Source: a virus. Taken from it: DNA of 24,513 nucleotides. A model generated the notes under the pieces. It was given only the letters and a program-made list of their open reading frames with translations, was not told the DNA's origin and did no database searches. The position numbers and the translations under genes are program-made. Shown here piece after piece: positions 3,364-12,398 of the stretch (position 1 is the first letter of the stretch; each line of letters starts with the position of its first letter). The stretch lies in the UHGV virus genome UHGV-0864142; one strand, written 5' to 3'.

Positions 3364-4617
3364 TTACTGCCCGGCAATAACGATGCCCGTATATTCAGGA
3401 ACCAGTACAGAGCAACCGTACAGAGTGGTGAAACGCGCAGTGGTTACGCCTTTGATGTGGTCGAAGGCGTAAGACATGATCAGCGTAGCGCCCTGCTCGG
3501 TGGTTGCCGTCATTACCTGTGGACCCTGACCAGTTGGGAACGCCAGTTTGCCGTACATCAGTTCAACAGAACCATCAGCCCAGAACAGGTTAGCCGGTGC
3601 GGCATTTTTGTTGAGAATGGTGATTGCTGCGCTACTTGCCGCATTAGCATCAACGTTTGCATATGGACGGCTGGCGACATCCGCGTTGTCAGGCGGCAGA
3701 ATTTTCGGGGAGATAGTTACTGTCGTTCCGCTAACTGCCAGAACGCGGAATACCTGCGGCTGCCCGGTGGTATCTTTGGTGATCTGGTGTACGGAATTCA
3801 CCCCTGCGATGGTAAACGCATCGCCAACCTGCAAGCCTTCAGCAGATACCGTAATGGTCCCCTGTCGGTTATCCACTGGCATATCGTTAGCATCTTTCGC
3901 TTCAACCTTGTGCGCAGGTGCTGCTGCCAGCGTAATGGAAGTTGCTGTACCCTTCGGAACACGACCAGAAATATCGGTCTTGTAGCTATCGAAGGACGCA
4001 ACCGGAGGGATCTGCGCTTTTTCGTATGCTGTCAGGGTTGCGCCCTGAGCATAGGCACGGTGACCAAGCTCGCCAGCAAGGTCTTTATAGTTGAAGGGGT
4101 TCCAGAAAGAGCGGCGGTTGATACCCTGTGGTACACCAATCGCCGTCATGGTGGCATCAATACCTGCCGCACAGTTCCACAAATCACGGCCCTGTGAACC
4201 AGTGGTTGAGTCAGCCATTGTGATCACGTTAGTAGCACGCTGCGTGACCATGGAAATCAGATCAGAGTCAATCTGTGCAGCAAGGCGCATACCTGCGGCG
4301 CGACCAGCTTCAGTTTTATGTTCCGGGTCACGCATTTCACGCGCATCCAGAGTGTACAGAATGTTTTTCGGCTCCTTGAACACTGAAGGAACAAGGCGCT
4401 GAACCAGTGCTGTTGGCGTTTTGCCGCTGAGATCGAGGCCTTCCTCAATGTTCATGTGGTAATGCTGCGGACGATACAGAACATCACCTGCTCGCTGCAT
4501 TGCTGTATCACCGGGACGGAATTTTTTAGCGTTACGGGAAACTACGCAGGCGGCCTCAAAGCCTTCAACGTAGTTTTCGAACATGATTTCAAGGTCTTTT
4601 GCTAATTGGTTAGCCAT
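3364..4617 (-). CDS. Major capsid (coat) protein, P22/Sf6-like (417 aa)
   Basis: Lies between the scaffold and gp4 homologs. Size fits P22-family coat. C-terminal region (NLFWADGSVELMYGK) resembles the P22 coat motif FWADDAIRIV as recalled. Confidence 0.85.
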   Translation of the reverse strand: MANQLAKDLEIMFENYVEGFEAACVVSRNAKKFRPGDTAMQRAGDVLYRPQHYHMNIEEGLDLSGKTPTALVQRLVPSVFKEPKNILYTLDAREMRDPEHKTEAGRAAGMRLAAQIDSDLISMVTQRATNVITMADSTTGSQGRDLWNCAAGIDATMTAIGVPQGINRRSFWNPFNYKDLAGELGHRAYAQGATLTAYEKAQIPPVASFDSYKTDISGRVPKGTATSITLAAAPAHKVEAKDANDMPVDNRQGTITVSAEGLQVGDAFTIAGVNSVHQITKDTTGQPQVFRVLAVSGTTVTISPKILPPDNADVASRPYANVDANAASSAAITILNKNAAPANLFWADGSVELMYGKLAFPTGQGPQVMTATTEQGATLIMSYAFDHIKGVTTARFTTLYGCSVLVPEYTGIVIAGQ

Positions 4618-9235: not shown

Positions 9236-9654
9236 TTTCCGAACAGAGTGCTCATCGGTGATGTTTCAATCTGAATTGCGCCGCCGTCCTTACCGACAAG
9301 CTCGTTAGTTACCTTGTCGCCATACTTACGGGGATTCATTCGGGTCAGCGCCCATTTGCGGGTATCAACGCGAAGTCTTGCCTTTGCCACCTCAGCAGCA
9401 TCTGGAATCGCAGTGTCCGCAATTTCGAATATCTCTTCGAAAATAGAATCAGCTCGTGCCTCAGTTGCCTTCGCGTACTTGTCGCGAAAATCCTCATGCT
9501 TTGCCAACCAGCGGAAAACAGTGGACTTATCCGGCATACCAGGACGCTTACATACTTTCAGCAAACTTTCGCCAGAAGAAAGCAACGAGCAGATATCGTC
9601 AGCCACCTCCGGCATATAATCAGAGGGGCGACCAGCTTTTGGTTCAGTCGCCAT
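9232..9654 (-). CDS. Terminase small subunit (TerS), Sf6 gp1-like (140 aa)
   Basis: 140 aa, as Sf6 gp1. Sequence MATEPKAGRPSDYMPEVADDICSLLSSGESLLKVCKRPGMPDKSTVFRWL recalled as Sf6 small terminase. Directly precedes terL. Confidence 0.88.
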   Translation of the reverse strand: MATEPKAGRPSDYMPEVADDICSLLSSGESLLKVCKRPGMPDKSTVFRWLAKHEDFRDKYAKATEARADSIFEEIFEIADTAIPDAAEVAKARLRVDTRKWALTRMNPRKYGDKVTNELVGKDGGAIQIETSPMSTLFGK

Positions 9655-9677
9655 ATTTATCTCACTTAATTGTCATT

Positions 9678-9857
9678 TCAGGCTGAGGACTCTTTCGCGC
9701 CTTCAATCAGTGACTGCTTCAGCAATTCGAGTGTGCCAATCGCCTCGCATAAACTGATTTCACCATCGTAATCATGGATGACGCTTTCCAGCCTCTCGTA
9801 TAGCTCTTGAGTAATTGGGAATTTCTTCTCCTTACCAAGATCAACGACGCTTGTCAT
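9678..9857 (-). CDS. Small hypothetical protein (59 aa) upstream of terS
   Basis: Not in the supplied track (below its size cutoff). ATG 9857..9855 with AGGAA about 6 nt upstream; open to TGA at 9680..9678. Translates MTSVVDLGKEKKFPITQELYERLESVIHDYDGEISLCEAIGTLELLKQSLIEGAKESSA. Confidence 0.4.
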   Translation of the reverse strand: MTSVVDLGKEKKFPITQELYERLESVIHDYDGEISLCEAIGTLELLKQSLIEGAKESSA

Positions 9858-9866
9858 AGAGGATTC

Positions 9867-10154
9867 CTATAATTTTGAATATCCAGACTCAAATACCTCA
9901 GCAGGAGAATATGATTCATATCCATCCTCATAGACAACGTAATAGCCTCCAGACATTGGTCGGTGCTTACAGATATATTCCGCGCTAACATCAAATGCTG
10001 CGTATTTCTTATCATCCGGATGAATAATTGCCCCATAACTAGAAGAGCCAGTCTTACCAGACTGATCTGGGTTTGGCTTATGTTCTATAGAGCCAATCTT
10101 CAGGGCGCGAACTTTTTTGTGGCACTGGTATCTCGGCATTTCTTGTTCAGTCAT
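9867..10154 (-). CDS. Hypothetical protein (95 aa), late-region cargo
   Basis: ATG 10154 with GGAGTG SD. Tightly packed with neighbours (3-nt gap upstream, 9-nt gap downstream). No family recognised. Confidence 0.6.
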   Translation of the reverse strand: MTEQEMPRYQCHKKVRALKIGSIEHKPNPDQSGKTGSSSYGAIIHPDDKKYAAFDVSAEYICKHRPMSGGYYVVYEDGYESYSPAEVFESGYSKL

Positions 10155-10157
10155 CTC

Positions 10158-10400
10158 TTACACTCCGGTAGTGAACAGGTCTAACGCTTCCTTCGATTTA
10201 CGCACCGCTTCGATAGTGCGGGTCGTGATATCTGAATTAGCGCCACCTGACTGGAAGTGAATTTTGAATAGCTCAAGCTTCAGTTCGTCAGTGCCGATGA
10301 ATTGAAATGCTTCTTCTGCGGCTGCGTTCTGGTTCATGACCAGTTTGTAAATCTCTAACTGGAATTTCTGTTCTTCAGTCATGGGAATAATCTCTGCCAT
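10158..10400 (-). CDS. Hypothetical protein (80 aa), late-region cargo
   Basis: ATG 10400 with GGAG 8 nt upstream. No family recognised. Confidence 0.6.
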   Translation of the reverse strand: MAEIIPMTEEQKFQLEIYKLVMNQNAAAEEAFQFIGTDELKLELFKIHFQSGGANSDITTRTIEAVRKSKEALDLFTTGV

Positions 10401-10503
10401 TGTTGGCTCCGTTTATCCGTTAAAAGGGATATCAGTTAAGTTATCCCGTGTAGGGTATAAGCCATTATCAAAGCCACTCTGTAGGGAATGGCTTTTGTAA
10501 TAA

Positions 10504-10875
10504 CTACTGTTCGCTTAACTTCTGCTTCAGCAAGTAACCTTCCAGCATCCAGATTTTATTCACCGCATTTTCGCGGGCGATCTTGCGACCGATCTCCGGG
10601 TCGAAGTTTTCCGGGCTGGCGCAGGCGCTTTCGCCGGTGACGGTGAAGCCGTTGCGCAGCACCAGGACGCAGAATGTAAGAAGCTTTAATGCTTCCTGAC
10701 TTTCGGTTAAATCAAGCGCGGATTTGTATGTCGCCATAGCGCCCTCTCCGCCAATACCATCGTATGCGGTGAAGCAATGCTCGCTTTTAATCACGTCTTC
10801 GATGTGCTGCGGGGTGATTCGCGGAGCGGTTTTGCCTTTCTCAACGATTTCTTTTTCGATTTGCTGGTCGTTCAT
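10504..10875 (-). CDS. Hypothetical protein (123 aa), late-region cargo
   Basis: ATG start at 10875. Same orientation and operon context as the flanking genes. I could not name a family. Confidence 0.6.
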   Translation of the reverse strand: MNDQQIEKEIVEKGKTAPRITPQHIEDVIKSEHCFTAYDGIGGEGAMATYKSALDLTESQEALKLLTFCVLVLRNGFTVTGESACASPENFDPEIGRKIARENAVNKIWMLEGYLLKQKLSEQ

Positions 10876-11062
10876 AATTATGACCCTGTAGAGTAGTTGC
10901 TTGATTAGGATGTCTTTCCATCAGTCCGCCACCACAAAGAATCTTTTTTGCCATAAGGCTGGAGGTTCATCTTTCAGTGGCTGCCAGTGTTATTTCCCCA
11001 CTTACTGGCTTGGGTTGTTTCGCTGTACTGCCGTAATGCAAAAACTGGATTAACCTGCGAAA

Positions 11063-11593
11063 TCACACCATTCCGGGCAAATACATTTGCACTTCATTTG
11101 CCGCTCTCTCACGTGCAACATGAAGCAATCTTTTTCGCCCACCAACGCCCCACTTAGCCATTTGGCTTGCGCACTGGCTTATCGCTTTGGTTTCAGTATT
11201 GATGATGTGATCGATTCTATTCAGACGGGACATTGCGCCAACGCCGAGACGGACGACCGTTTTGAAAACTTCATAAACTTCGATTTCAAATTCCGGCTTA
11301 ATCCATGCTGCATATCTGATTGCCAGAAGTTCAACACCCCACACACCTGGTTCTGCACCACCTTTGATTATTTTAAGTGGTTGAATTTGTTCCAAAGTGC
11401 TTTTTTGCACTTTGGCCTCCAGTGCTTTTATGAAGCGTTTTATCTGCGCGCTACGCAAAAACTGGCTTGGGCGCTGTTGCTCTGTAGCCTCTCCATTTGC
11501 AACTGCTGCTGCATGGAGATCGTTTAAGTTGTAGCGTCCATCCTCATCAACACGAACGGACACACCATTGACAATAACTGTTGGGTACTTCAT
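11063..11593 (-). CDS. KilA-N domain protein (176 aa)
   Basis: N-terminal VNGVSVRVDEDGRYNLNDLHAAA...QRPSQFLRSAQIKRFIKAL is typical of KilA-N (APSES-like) DNA-binding domains. ATG at 11593. Confidence 0.7.
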   Translation of the reverse strand: MKYPTVIVNGVSVRVDEDGRYNLNDLHAAAVANGEATEQQRPSQFLRSAQIKRFIKALEAKVQKSTLEQIQPLKIIKGGAEPGVWGVELLAIRYAAWIKPEFEIEVYEVFKTVVRLGVGAMSRLNRIDHIINTETKAISQCASQMAKWGVGGRKRLLHVARERAANEVQMYLPGMV

Positions 11594-11735
11594 CAGTGAT
11601 TACCTTTTAGTGATGAACCTTGTCACACAGGATTCCGGCCCACAGAAAGGCACCGATCACCAAACCGGCATCCTCAAGGGTCATCCTGAAAGGTTCTGTG
11701 TTCAGAAGTCGCGCGTGTGAAGCGCGTTTGTTGCA

Positions 11736-11764
11736 GATATAAAAAAGCCCCGCGAATGCGAGGC
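11736..11764 (-). terminator. Intrinsic terminator downstream of Rz (7-bp GC-rich stem, loop AUUC, then UUUUUUAU)
   Basis: Minus-strand RNA GCCUCGC-AUUC-GCGGGGC-UUUUUUAUAUCUG. Shares the UUUUUUAUAUCUG tail with tR' further upstream. Confidence 0.6.
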
Positions 11765-11939
11765 TAAATCCTGGTATTTGTAATGAACTGGCTCTTATCT
11801 CAACGCAGCCCCTTACTGCGCGCCAGATGCTCAATATCAAGCATCAGCAATGAGATGTTTAATCTGGATTCACTCCAGAAGTGATCACCACCCTGTCTAC
11901 AGAGCCAGATGTGAAGGATGATGAGTAAAATTATCGCTA

Positions 11940-12398
11940 TCATCGAAGGCATTGCGTCCTGATGTACTCCTGCAGGTAGTTAACCTGCGCGGTTATCTTG
12001 TCGATTCCACTTCGGAGACGGTAATAATTGAGTTCAGCATCTGCTGTAAGTCTTGGGCTTTCTCCATCGCCCATGCTGCTGGCTCCGGTCGTTGACTTTG
12101 CACAGGTGGCGGCGACTTGCAGGCGCTTACGCCCAGCAGAAACATCAGCACGGAGACTTTCGATAGTCGCATTAGCATCAGCAAGCTCCTTTGTGTATCT
12201 GGCGTCAAGTTCTGCTACATCACGTTGACGCTGCTGCATGTCAGCGATGGTGGCGGTCGCCTGCTTCAGCTCACTGACTTTTTTATCACGCTGTTCTTTG
12301 TAGGCGATGGCGTTATCACGGTAATGATTAACAGCCCATGACAGGCAGACGATGATGCAGATAACCAGAGCGGAGATAATCGCGGTTACTCTGCTCAT
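11940..12398 (-). CDS. Rz: i-spanin Rz (152 aa)
   Basis: First ~30 residues [31 protein letters not shown] match lambda Rz as recalled; the rest is divergent but still Rz-like coiled coil. ATGA overlap with the R stop. Confidence 0.93.
11993..12178 (-). CDS. Rz1: o-spanin Rz1, lipoprotein embedded in the +1 frame of Rz
   Basis: [20 protein letters not shown] has a signal peptide and lipobox (LGVSAC), followed by a Pro-rich segment, entirely inside Rz. Start at 12178 or 12172 is ambiguous. Confidence 0.8.

Follow-up and report, generated by a model that had tools for sequence, protein, structure and literature searches.

Exchangeable cassettes between the lysis and terminase genes of a P22-like phage hold an Acb4 homologue and p95, a candidate anti-defence family

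The DNA analysed here (the window) is the virus genome UHGV-0864142, 24,513 nucleotides long, in which a block of five minus-strand open reading frames (ORFs) lies between the lysis genes and the small-terminase gene terS. In the direction of transcription the block encodes a KilA-N protein, a 123-aa protein of the Acb4 family, a DUF2560 protein and two small proteins that we call p95 and p59. The virus is, as judged from its genes, a P22-like (Sf6/HK620-type) temperate phage, since it carries a Sf6-type TerS, a P22 portal and coat, Q, a holin and Rz/Rz1. The region is the already annotated variable region of P22-like phages, and the cluster itself is ordinary; within this known mosaic hot spot, p95 represents a candidate anti-defence family. 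Taking the observations together, we think it likely that the region is a mosaic of single-gene cassettes which carries a homologue of the Acb4 sponge and an anti-signalling protein, p95, and which is transcribed late.

An earlier note on this DNA had described the same five ORFs, and on re-check their strand, lengths, coordinates, gaps and ribosome-binding sites all proved correct, as did the flanks it gave: the holin, endolysin and Rz/Rz1 genes (Pfam matches PF05106, PF03245 and PF06085) on one side, and on the other the Sf6-type terS and TerL, which are followed by the P22-type portal and coat genes. The gaps along the block are 187, 103, 3 and 9 nt, with a further 23 nt before terS, and the five starts are preceded, in gene order, by the Shine-Dalgarno-like motifs AAGG, AGGG, GGAG, GGAG and AGGA. 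Every ORF of the block has a PHROG or Pfam match at E ≤ 1e-41 and hundreds of homologues in related phages, so these are not chance ORFs. For the four small proteins no family had been named; two of them fall into PF13876 and PF10834, and all four belong to PHROGs, with named homologues in Sf6 or HK620. At the place of the terminator reported 5' of the block there is a terminator-like hairpin: an 8-bp stem, six of its pairs G-C, closes a 4-nt loop and precedes the T run TTTTTATATC. NCBIfam and PADLOC searches with six ORFs gave no matches, an Rfam scan of the window returned no families, and a consensus scan of the 187-nt gap on the coding strand turned up nothing resembling a sigma-70 promoter.

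Table 1. Features of the lysis-terS region, in window coordinates
Feature	Position	Strand	Remarks
Q antiterminator	14470-13847	-	PF03589; 5' of lysis genes
Holin	13178-12855	-	lysis cassette
Endolysin	12871-12395	-	lysis cassette
Rz	12398-11940	-	Rz1 embedded (PF06085)
50-aa ORF, Sf6 gp65-like	11800-11952	-	hydrophobic N-terminus; overlaps Rz 3' end
Terminator-like hairpin	11765-11746	-	between lysis cassette and KilA-N gene
KilA-N protein, 176 aa (HK620 hkbK type)	11593-11063	-	PF04383
Spacer between KilA-N and Acb4 cassettes, 187 nt	10876-11062		cassette junction
Acb4-family protein, 123 aa (homologue of Sf6 gene 66, N4 gp49)	10875-10504	-	PF13876
DUF2560 protein, 80 aa (HK620 hkbM, Sf6 gp67)	10400-10158	-	PF10834
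p95, 95 aa, small beta-barrel (OB-like), ~300-bp cassette	10154-9867	-	phrog_11049
p59, 59 aa, acidic (HK620 hkbN, Sf6 gp68)	9857-9678	-	phrog_3546
Small terminase terS, Sf6-type	9654-9232	-	PF20901, E 3e-44

Using each of the five proteins as an anchor, we fetched 376 loci from IMG/VR and scored their genes by tblastn; architectures were counted in 224 non-identical regions 3' of Rz, and cassettes were catalogued in 223. The gene order was constant, [gp65][KilA-N][Acb4] DUF2560 [p95][p59] terS, and yet 42 different architectures were found, none of which holds the full gene combination of the window (0/224). p95 was absent from all 61 loci anchored on KilA-N and KilA-N from all 48 anchored on p95, and each gene of the block occurs without each of the others. 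Likewise, at least 80% coverage of positions 9600-12000 in one place was found in none of 50,697 phage records and 5,426 complete E. coli genomes, and in the best-matching E. coli genomes either the 123-aa gene or both the 95-aa and the 59-aa genes are missing. The block is thus a mosaic region of independently exchanged single-gene cassettes rather than a unit, because the full combination is missing and its genes assort independently. This bears out the suggestion of the earlier note that the gap between Rz and terS is a cargo hot spot. Its further suggestion of a module regulated by KilA-N is not supported, since KilA-N is found with or without each other gene, and conservation as a unit, by which the note itself had proposed to judge the block, was seen nowhere searched. 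The anti-defence set that it proposed survives in part: the 123-aa ORF is an Acb4 homologue and the family of the 95-aa ORF is linked to sponges, while a five-gene set is contradicted by the 42 architectures and the independent assortment.

The content of the gap shows how readily its slots are refilled. The KilA-N slot holds Rha in 62 regions, a GIY-YIG/T5orf172 protein in 25, a KilA-N+P63C protein in 14 and an HNH protein in 10, or is empty; the other gap cassettes include Acb4 (75/223), a Dec-like protein (16), a protein with an HExxH motif (15) and a Tad2 fusion (11/223; PF11195, E 4e-26). The layout is a row of fixed slots, [gp65-like] [KilA-N / Rha / nuclease] [Acb4 or Tad2 fusion] DUF2560 [p95] [p59 or Dec] terS. 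In the relative L337 (IMGVR_UViG_2571042732_000001), whose terS and TerL are 98.6% and 99.8% identical to those of the window, the KilA-N/Acb4 slot (3932-4453) contains a 173-aa protein consisting of a short relative of the p95 domain followed by a Tad2 domain. At the DNA level, parts of the region match Sf6, HK620, other Lederbergvirus phages and E. coli prophages at 92-98% identity, only piecewise. Position, order and orientation are shared with Sf6 genes 65-68 and HK620 hkbK-hkbN, and each shared gene (gp65-like, hkbK, gp66, hkbM/gp67, hkbN/gp68) is 90-98% identical to its Sf6 or HK620 counterpart. Sf6 lacks KilA-N and p95, whereas in HK620 both Acb4 and p95 are missing and hkbL is found instead. 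Compared with both phages, the p95 cassette is an addition of the window, a clean ~300-bp insertion that separates DUF2560 from the 59-aa gene.

The 123-aa protein matches PF13876 (Phage_gp49_66), a family of small phage-encoded proteins, over the whole profile (positions 1-82/82; E 1.9e-34; 118.4 bits against a cut-off of 27). When PDB sequences were searched with phmmer, the sole significant match was 9e4w, the Acb4 of Bacillus phage SPO1 (E 0.004), and residues 66-108 of the ORF align to residues 38-80 of that chain, the β3-α4-α5 region that binds the ligand. Chang et al. (bioRxiv 10.1101/2024.12.30.630793) describe SPO1 Acb4 as a tetramer that acts as a sponge for 3'3'-cGAMP (cyclic GMP-AMP) and related signals of the cyclic-oligonucleotide-based antiphage signalling system (CBASS), and they define the Acb4 family as PF13876, with 1,331 members. 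They report that all eight purified homologues (8/8), including those from phages of Gram-negative hosts, bound 3'3'-cGAMP, while 3'3'-c-di-AMP was bound only by homologues from phages of Gram-negative hosts. Their Table S3 lists Sf6 gp66 and 51 proteins with the first 11 residues of our ORF, so that near-identical relatives of the 123-aa protein stand in the published family table. We mapped the SPO1 contact residues (K36, F48, E49, V56, Y57, F62, N63, I66, T70 and K81) through the alignment. F48, F62 and I66, which provide stacking and hydrophobic contacts in the pocket, are conserved as F77, F91 and I95, together with the motif E-N-F-x-x-E-I-G-R; V56 is changed to C85, and N63, a backbone contact, to D92. 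The C-terminal core of the 123-aa protein is almost identical in Sf6, epsilon15 and many enterobacterial prophages. The 96-aa SPO1 protein differs in that the ORF of the window has a longer N-terminal region and belongs to a temperate enterobacterial phage, in whose late operon it is found. We conclude that the 123-aa protein is firmly a member of the Acb4 (PF13876) sponge family by sequence, and we predict that it is a cyclic-dinucleotide sponge which counters CBASS. In the record of Escherichia phage Huey (L003, PQ850609.1), an Acb4-family gene and its 166-aa neighbour in the KilA-N/Rha slot (382-762 and 997-1497) are both annotated 'anti-CRISPR protein'; these labels are probably automatic mislabels, and the first should read Acb4-family / anti-CBASS.

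p95 belongs to phrog_11049 (E 1e-54) and has no Pfam family and no sequence match in the PDB; an identical protein (100%) is encoded by Escherichia phage CurroJimenez_Bas106 (PQ850599.1). An alignment of 81 homologues with 50-76% identity (A1) shows about 17 invariant positions, including those of an N-terminal strand of the pattern Y-x-C-H-K-x-V-x-A-L-K-I and a C-terminus of the pattern G-G-Y-Y-V-V-Y-x-D-G-Y-x-S-x-S-P-x-x-x-F-E-x-G-Y. The AlphaFold2 model of the monomer is a small beta-barrel with a terminal helix (predicted local distance difference test score, pLDDT, 82), and its matches in BFVD are uncharacterised proteins and one MazG fusion. An exhaustive profile search returned 4,965 cluster representatives at E ≤ 1e-3 and 3,065 at E ≤ 1e-10, which puts the family, whose members go by the label 'hypothetical', at ~5,000 clusters at 50% identity, a count that includes some noise from matches to repeat proteins. 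One such match, the 4,188-aa protein P0121 (E 4e-40), was rejected as a member because its 28 partial matches fall on a repeat motif, G-G-T-I-V-I-A-A-D-G-S-Y-S-Y-T-P, and are spurious.

What gives the p95 family a direction is the company it keeps. We took the best 150 of the 4,965 representatives and scanned with Pfam the 82 of these that are 135-400 aa long. The sponge domains found were Sequestin (PF21825) in seven, Acb4 (PF13876) in four, Tad2 (PF11195) in three and the Acb2/Tad1 hairpin (PF24729) in two, compared with six occurrences of other domains in the same 82 (DUF551 twice and four others once each). Every clustered fusion has the p95 domain at its N-terminal side and the sponge domain after it, and in three of them (P0123, P0151 and P0206) the partner is an Acb4 of the subtype found in the window. 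Among IMG/VR relatives, L051, L054, L055, L057 and L059 are p95-Tad2 fusions and L058 is a fusion to the Acb2/Tad1 hairpin. The two domains also occur as separate neighbours: at L392 4001-4522 only 9 nt separate a standalone p95 homologue from the Acb2/Tad1-hairpin gene (PF24729, likewise standalone) downstream of it, and this pair sits inside a replication module, between an Enc34-type single-stranded-DNA-binding protein and DNA polymerase A. Within the hot spot itself, the Tad2 fusion of 11 P22-like phages begins with a shorter relative of the p95 domain, which hhalign matches to the C-terminal half of p95 with 93% probability. Seven other contexts of p95 homologues comprise four early, replication or nin modules, two positions directly after spanins in unrelated prophages, and one in the Pseudomonas phage Dolphis. 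The homologues lie on phage or prophage contigs, and standalone p95 is short (95 aa) and has no other domain.

This recurrent fusion and adjacency to Sequestin, Acb4, Tad2 and Acb2/Tad1-hairpin domains suggests, as the best reading of these sequences, that p95 acts against nucleotide-signalling immunity. There is a precedent in Sequestin, which was predicted from its fusions and then verified by Tal et al. (bioRxiv 10.1101/2025.07.12.664507). Like Sequestin before its characterisation, the p95 domain is short, phage-restricted and found either alone or fused to sponge domains; sponge fusions include Tad2-Acb4 and Acb4-Sequestin proteins, and the partners of p95 are Acb4, Tad2, Sequestin and the Acb2/Tad1 hairpin. 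The folds differ, in that Sequestin is a helical hairpin and p95 is modelled as a beta-barrel. The Acb4 table of Chang et al. and the Sequestin table of Tal et al. both hold proteins with a p95-type N-terminal domain, and the searched passages and supplementary files of the two papers contain no description of this domain. A 2026 paper counts six sponge families, none of them with the p95 fold. Lockin, Acb5 and TadIV-1 were considered as the identity of p95 and rejected, as their described folds, sizes and distributions differ. A bolder proposal, which we offer tentatively and hold to be possible rather than probable, is that the p95 family constitutes unrecognised, widespread phage neutralisers of nucleotide immune signalling, a new beta-barrel/OB-type (oligonucleotide/oligosaccharide-binding) sponge or signalling inhibitor of which the OB domain of the phage decoration protein Dec is an offshoot; phages would employ it either alone or as the N-terminal half of bifunctional proteins with Acb4, Tad2, Sequestin or Acb2/Tad1-type partners.

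Several points weigh against an anti-signalling role for the two proteins. The guanine-specific contacts (K36, E49) and phosphate contacts (Y57, T70, K81) of SPO1 Acb4 are replaced in the 123-aa protein, by L65 and T78 and by A86, I99 and M110, respectively; while family membership is firm, the sponge mechanism is thus a prediction, and these replacements do not allow a ligand to be named. Anti-defence genes are, moreover, not usually expressed late. The fusion counts for p95 come from the best 150 of 4,965 hits only and carry no formal background model, and as a fused domain p95 could be an adaptor or oligomerisation module and not an inhibitor. Finally, the only structural relative of p95 with a known function, Dec, is a virion protein, and homologues in the records of two Pseudomonas phages, Dolphis and Jeremy, bear the label 'capsid decoration protein'.

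The relation to Dec deserves closer attention. Among structures, p95 is matched best by Dec of Salmonella phage L (PDB 6e3c), and hhalign aligns A1 to Dec with 88% probability (E 3e-6) and to four Dec-like sequences with 89% (E 2e-6), the Dec query having been verified by tblastn at 100% identity. The match joins residues 6-95 of p95 to residues 10-92 of Dec, its OB-fold capsid-binding domain, at 27-28% identity, and both proteins share the C-terminal motif GGY...Y/DG...Y.S..AFE..Y. The profile comparison thus shows p95 to be homologous to the OB-fold domain of Dec. Moreover, Dec genes use the same hot spot: in Salmonella P22-like phages such as S149, Dec lies directly 5' of terS. A rival reading is that p95, alone or by amber read-through with p59, is a Dec-like decoration or cement protein and the distal cluster structural; it would also draw support from the location of p95 in the late operon, adjoining the head genes, and from the two Pseudomonas phage annotations.

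The stop codon of p95 adds to this question. It is a TAG (window 9857-9870, minus strand) in frame with p59, which starts four codons downstream, and natural fusions exist: five public protein clusters (P0001-P0004 and P0006), as well as L393 2501-2977, are 158-aa p95-p59 proteins in which the amber site has become GAG (Glu), CAG (Gln) or TGG (Trp) through three different one-base changes. Such a fusion or read-through product would consist of an OB domain and a C-terminal domain, which resembles the build of Dec. All 29 non-identical p95-p59 cases (29/29), however, share the same TAG-plus-9-nt junction and represent one recent lineage, so the adjacency is not independent evidence. We rejected a functional p95-p59 pair, since it is confined to this single lineage and relatives at ≤70% identity lack p59; the 60-aa ORF that follows a 65%-identical p95 homologue is unrelated to p59. 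The natural fusions show that fusion is tolerated and give no evidence for a functional pair.

Other differences also speak against decoration. p95 ends where the Dec OB domain ends, its residue 95 aligning to Dec residue 92, and lacks the C-terminal three-stranded trimeric spike (~93-134). The capsid-interface residues of Dec, K30, Y31, Y49, Y71 and E73 (PMC6449081), correspond to E24, H25, D55, D77 and Y79 in p95; none of the five is kept, and the two most important ones have become acidic. Conversely, the family-invariant polar residues of p95, H12, K13, K19, K63, H64 and D77, are absent from Dec. Unlike Dec, the p95 family is found in many phage types and in early-gene, replication or nin contexts, and it coexists with Dec-like genes, as in the phage L041, which carries both. 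In Dolphis, the neighbours of the gene labelled as a capsid decoration protein are small hypothetical genes and not head genes. Ralstonia phage GP4 has a 50%-identical homologue, gp05, but the only proteins in the 3.7 Å cryo-electron microscopy structure of its head are the major capsid protein gp2 and gp1, an Ig-like cement protein, although icosahedral averaging could miss a protein of low occupancy. p95 is probably not a decoration protein, and we regard this explanation as unlikely.

Some further observations concern Dec, GP4 and their neighbours. The GP4 cement protein, gp1 (Ig-like, 157 aa), was considered as a p95 homologue and rejected, since the homologue in GP4 is another protein, gp05. 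In GP4-like phages the homologue is flanked by the portal/gp06 genes on one side and the major capsid gene on the other, and it adjoins the gene of a CsrA-like regulator, an odd non-structural pair (gp05-gp04 in GP4, L386 4001-4500) within a head module. Over ~40 residues, the Dec spike (residues ~88-131) is 50-68% identical to the products of tail-fibre or 'structural protein' genes from T4-like phages, cyanophages and phages of Vibrio and Pseudomonas. With a spike that matches fibres and an OB domain related to the p95 family, Dec has the look of a chimera built from two unrelated modules. Phages with Dec carry, between it and DUF2560, a gene for a 129-aa protein that has an HExxH motif (LVHECAHV) but falls into no Pfam family, found in Salmonella phage S149 (orf50, L381 2615-3004) and 15 related loci. 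It is unrelated to p95: orf50 was tried as a relative and gave an hhalign probability of 0.1%.

Still less probable, in our view, is neutral mosaic filler, in which the Acb4 homologue and p95 would have no anti-defence role in this phage and would be kept only by linkage to essential late genes. The partial conservation of the SPO1 ligand contacts, the dispensability of the block genes across relatives and the tolerated stop-codon loss variants would all fit this reading. On the other hand, the C-terminal core of the Acb4 homologue stays near-identical from Sf6 to epsilon15 and enterobacterial prophages, all eight homologues tested by Chang et al. bound 3'3'-cGAMP, and the ~17 invariant positions in 81 p95 sequences point to purifying selection. 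The notion that all five ORFs form one co-adapted module, a KilA-N regulator with four effectors inherited as a unit, is hardly credible: the common strand, the tight spacing of the last three genes and the 5' terminator would suit it, but it is already refuted on conservation by the missing combination, the absence of p95 from the KilA-N-anchored loci and of KilA-N from the p95-anchored ones, the free assortment of every gene and the replacement or loss of KilA-N in its slot, and the consensus scan found no promoter-like site between KilA-N and the downstream genes.

Returning to a mosaic with anti-signalling cargo, we propose the following. In lambdoid late operons, Q-modified RNA polymerase reads through terminators. 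Given this biology and the Q gene of the window, the block would be transcribed with the late operon from a Q-dependent promoter, through the hairpin 5' of KilA-N. The Acb4 homologue would form a homotetramer that sequesters CBASS cyclic dinucleotides, and this sequestration would keep the CBASS effector off while virion proteins accumulate. p95 would most likely be a small oligomeric binder of another immune signal; direct blocking of a signalling protein is a less likely alternative. The KilA-N protein would be a DNA-binding protein unrelated to the other genes of the block, and DUF2560 and p59 would be small proteins confined to the P22-like lineage.

A similar arrangement is known from N4-like phages (Migulavirinae), whose hot spot for Tad2, Tad3, Acb4 and Sequestin likewise offers alternative small anti-signalling genes at a fixed position. 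In contrast to that hot spot, the one described here belongs to the late operon and the lysis-packaging gap of temperate P22-like phages, and it interleaves genes outside anti-defence, namely DUF2560, KilA-N/Rha, homing nucleases and Dec. With 75 Acb4 genes and 11 Tad2 fusions in 223 regions, the late-operon gap is a sponge slot of temperate enterobacterial phages, and, as thousands of E. coli, Salmonella and Shigella prophages are available, a cheap place to search for counter-defence genes. The best-defined family in the block, Acb4, was itself published only in 2024-25, and p95 points to a very large uncharacterised family with a Sequestin-type signature of guilt by fusion. If p95 binds an immune signal, it would add a new fold to the sponge repertoire and could explain why many phages resist CBASS- or Thoeris-type systems. 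The homology between p95 and Dec would in addition provide an evolutionary origin for the 'novel OB-fold' of Dec, and, if the broader proposal about the family is true, the Dec OB domain would be a p95-family offshoot, fused to a fibre-like trimeric spike in this very hot spot.

The remaining genes are described here for completeness. Residues 9-113 of the KilA-N protein match PF04383 (E 7.3e-18) and the protein matches phrog_129, 'transcriptional regulator' (E 2e-60), which suggests that it probably binds DNA; its C-terminal half matches only phrog_10441, a family of unannotated function. The 80-aa ORF covers the entire DUF2560 profile (PF10834, E 1.1e-43, positions 1-72/72). Its AlphaFold2 model consists of four helices (pLDDT 78), and a Foldseek search against the PDB gave no match below E 3.9. 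DUF2560 is near-universal in the related regions (195/223), and this suggests a near-core lineage gene with a late function rather than cargo. Its narrow family comprises 92 clusters without fusions, all of them Enterobacteriaceae wherever named. p59 (phrog_3546, E 1e-41) belongs to a similarly narrow family of 72 clusters, again Enterobacteriaceae wherever named and without fusions. A literature search on DUF2560, hkbM and hkbN found no relevant paper.

Upstream of the block, the 50-aa gp65-like ORF, which the earlier note had not listed, sits between Rz and the terminator hairpin; Sf6p65 has the same position in Sf6, and a gp65-like ORF follows Rz in about half of the related loci. At the other end, the 23-nt gap between p59 and terS (9655-9677) has a G+C content of 22% and is nearly identical in HK620 and Sf6, and it looks like a conserved junction or a translation-initiation region for terS.

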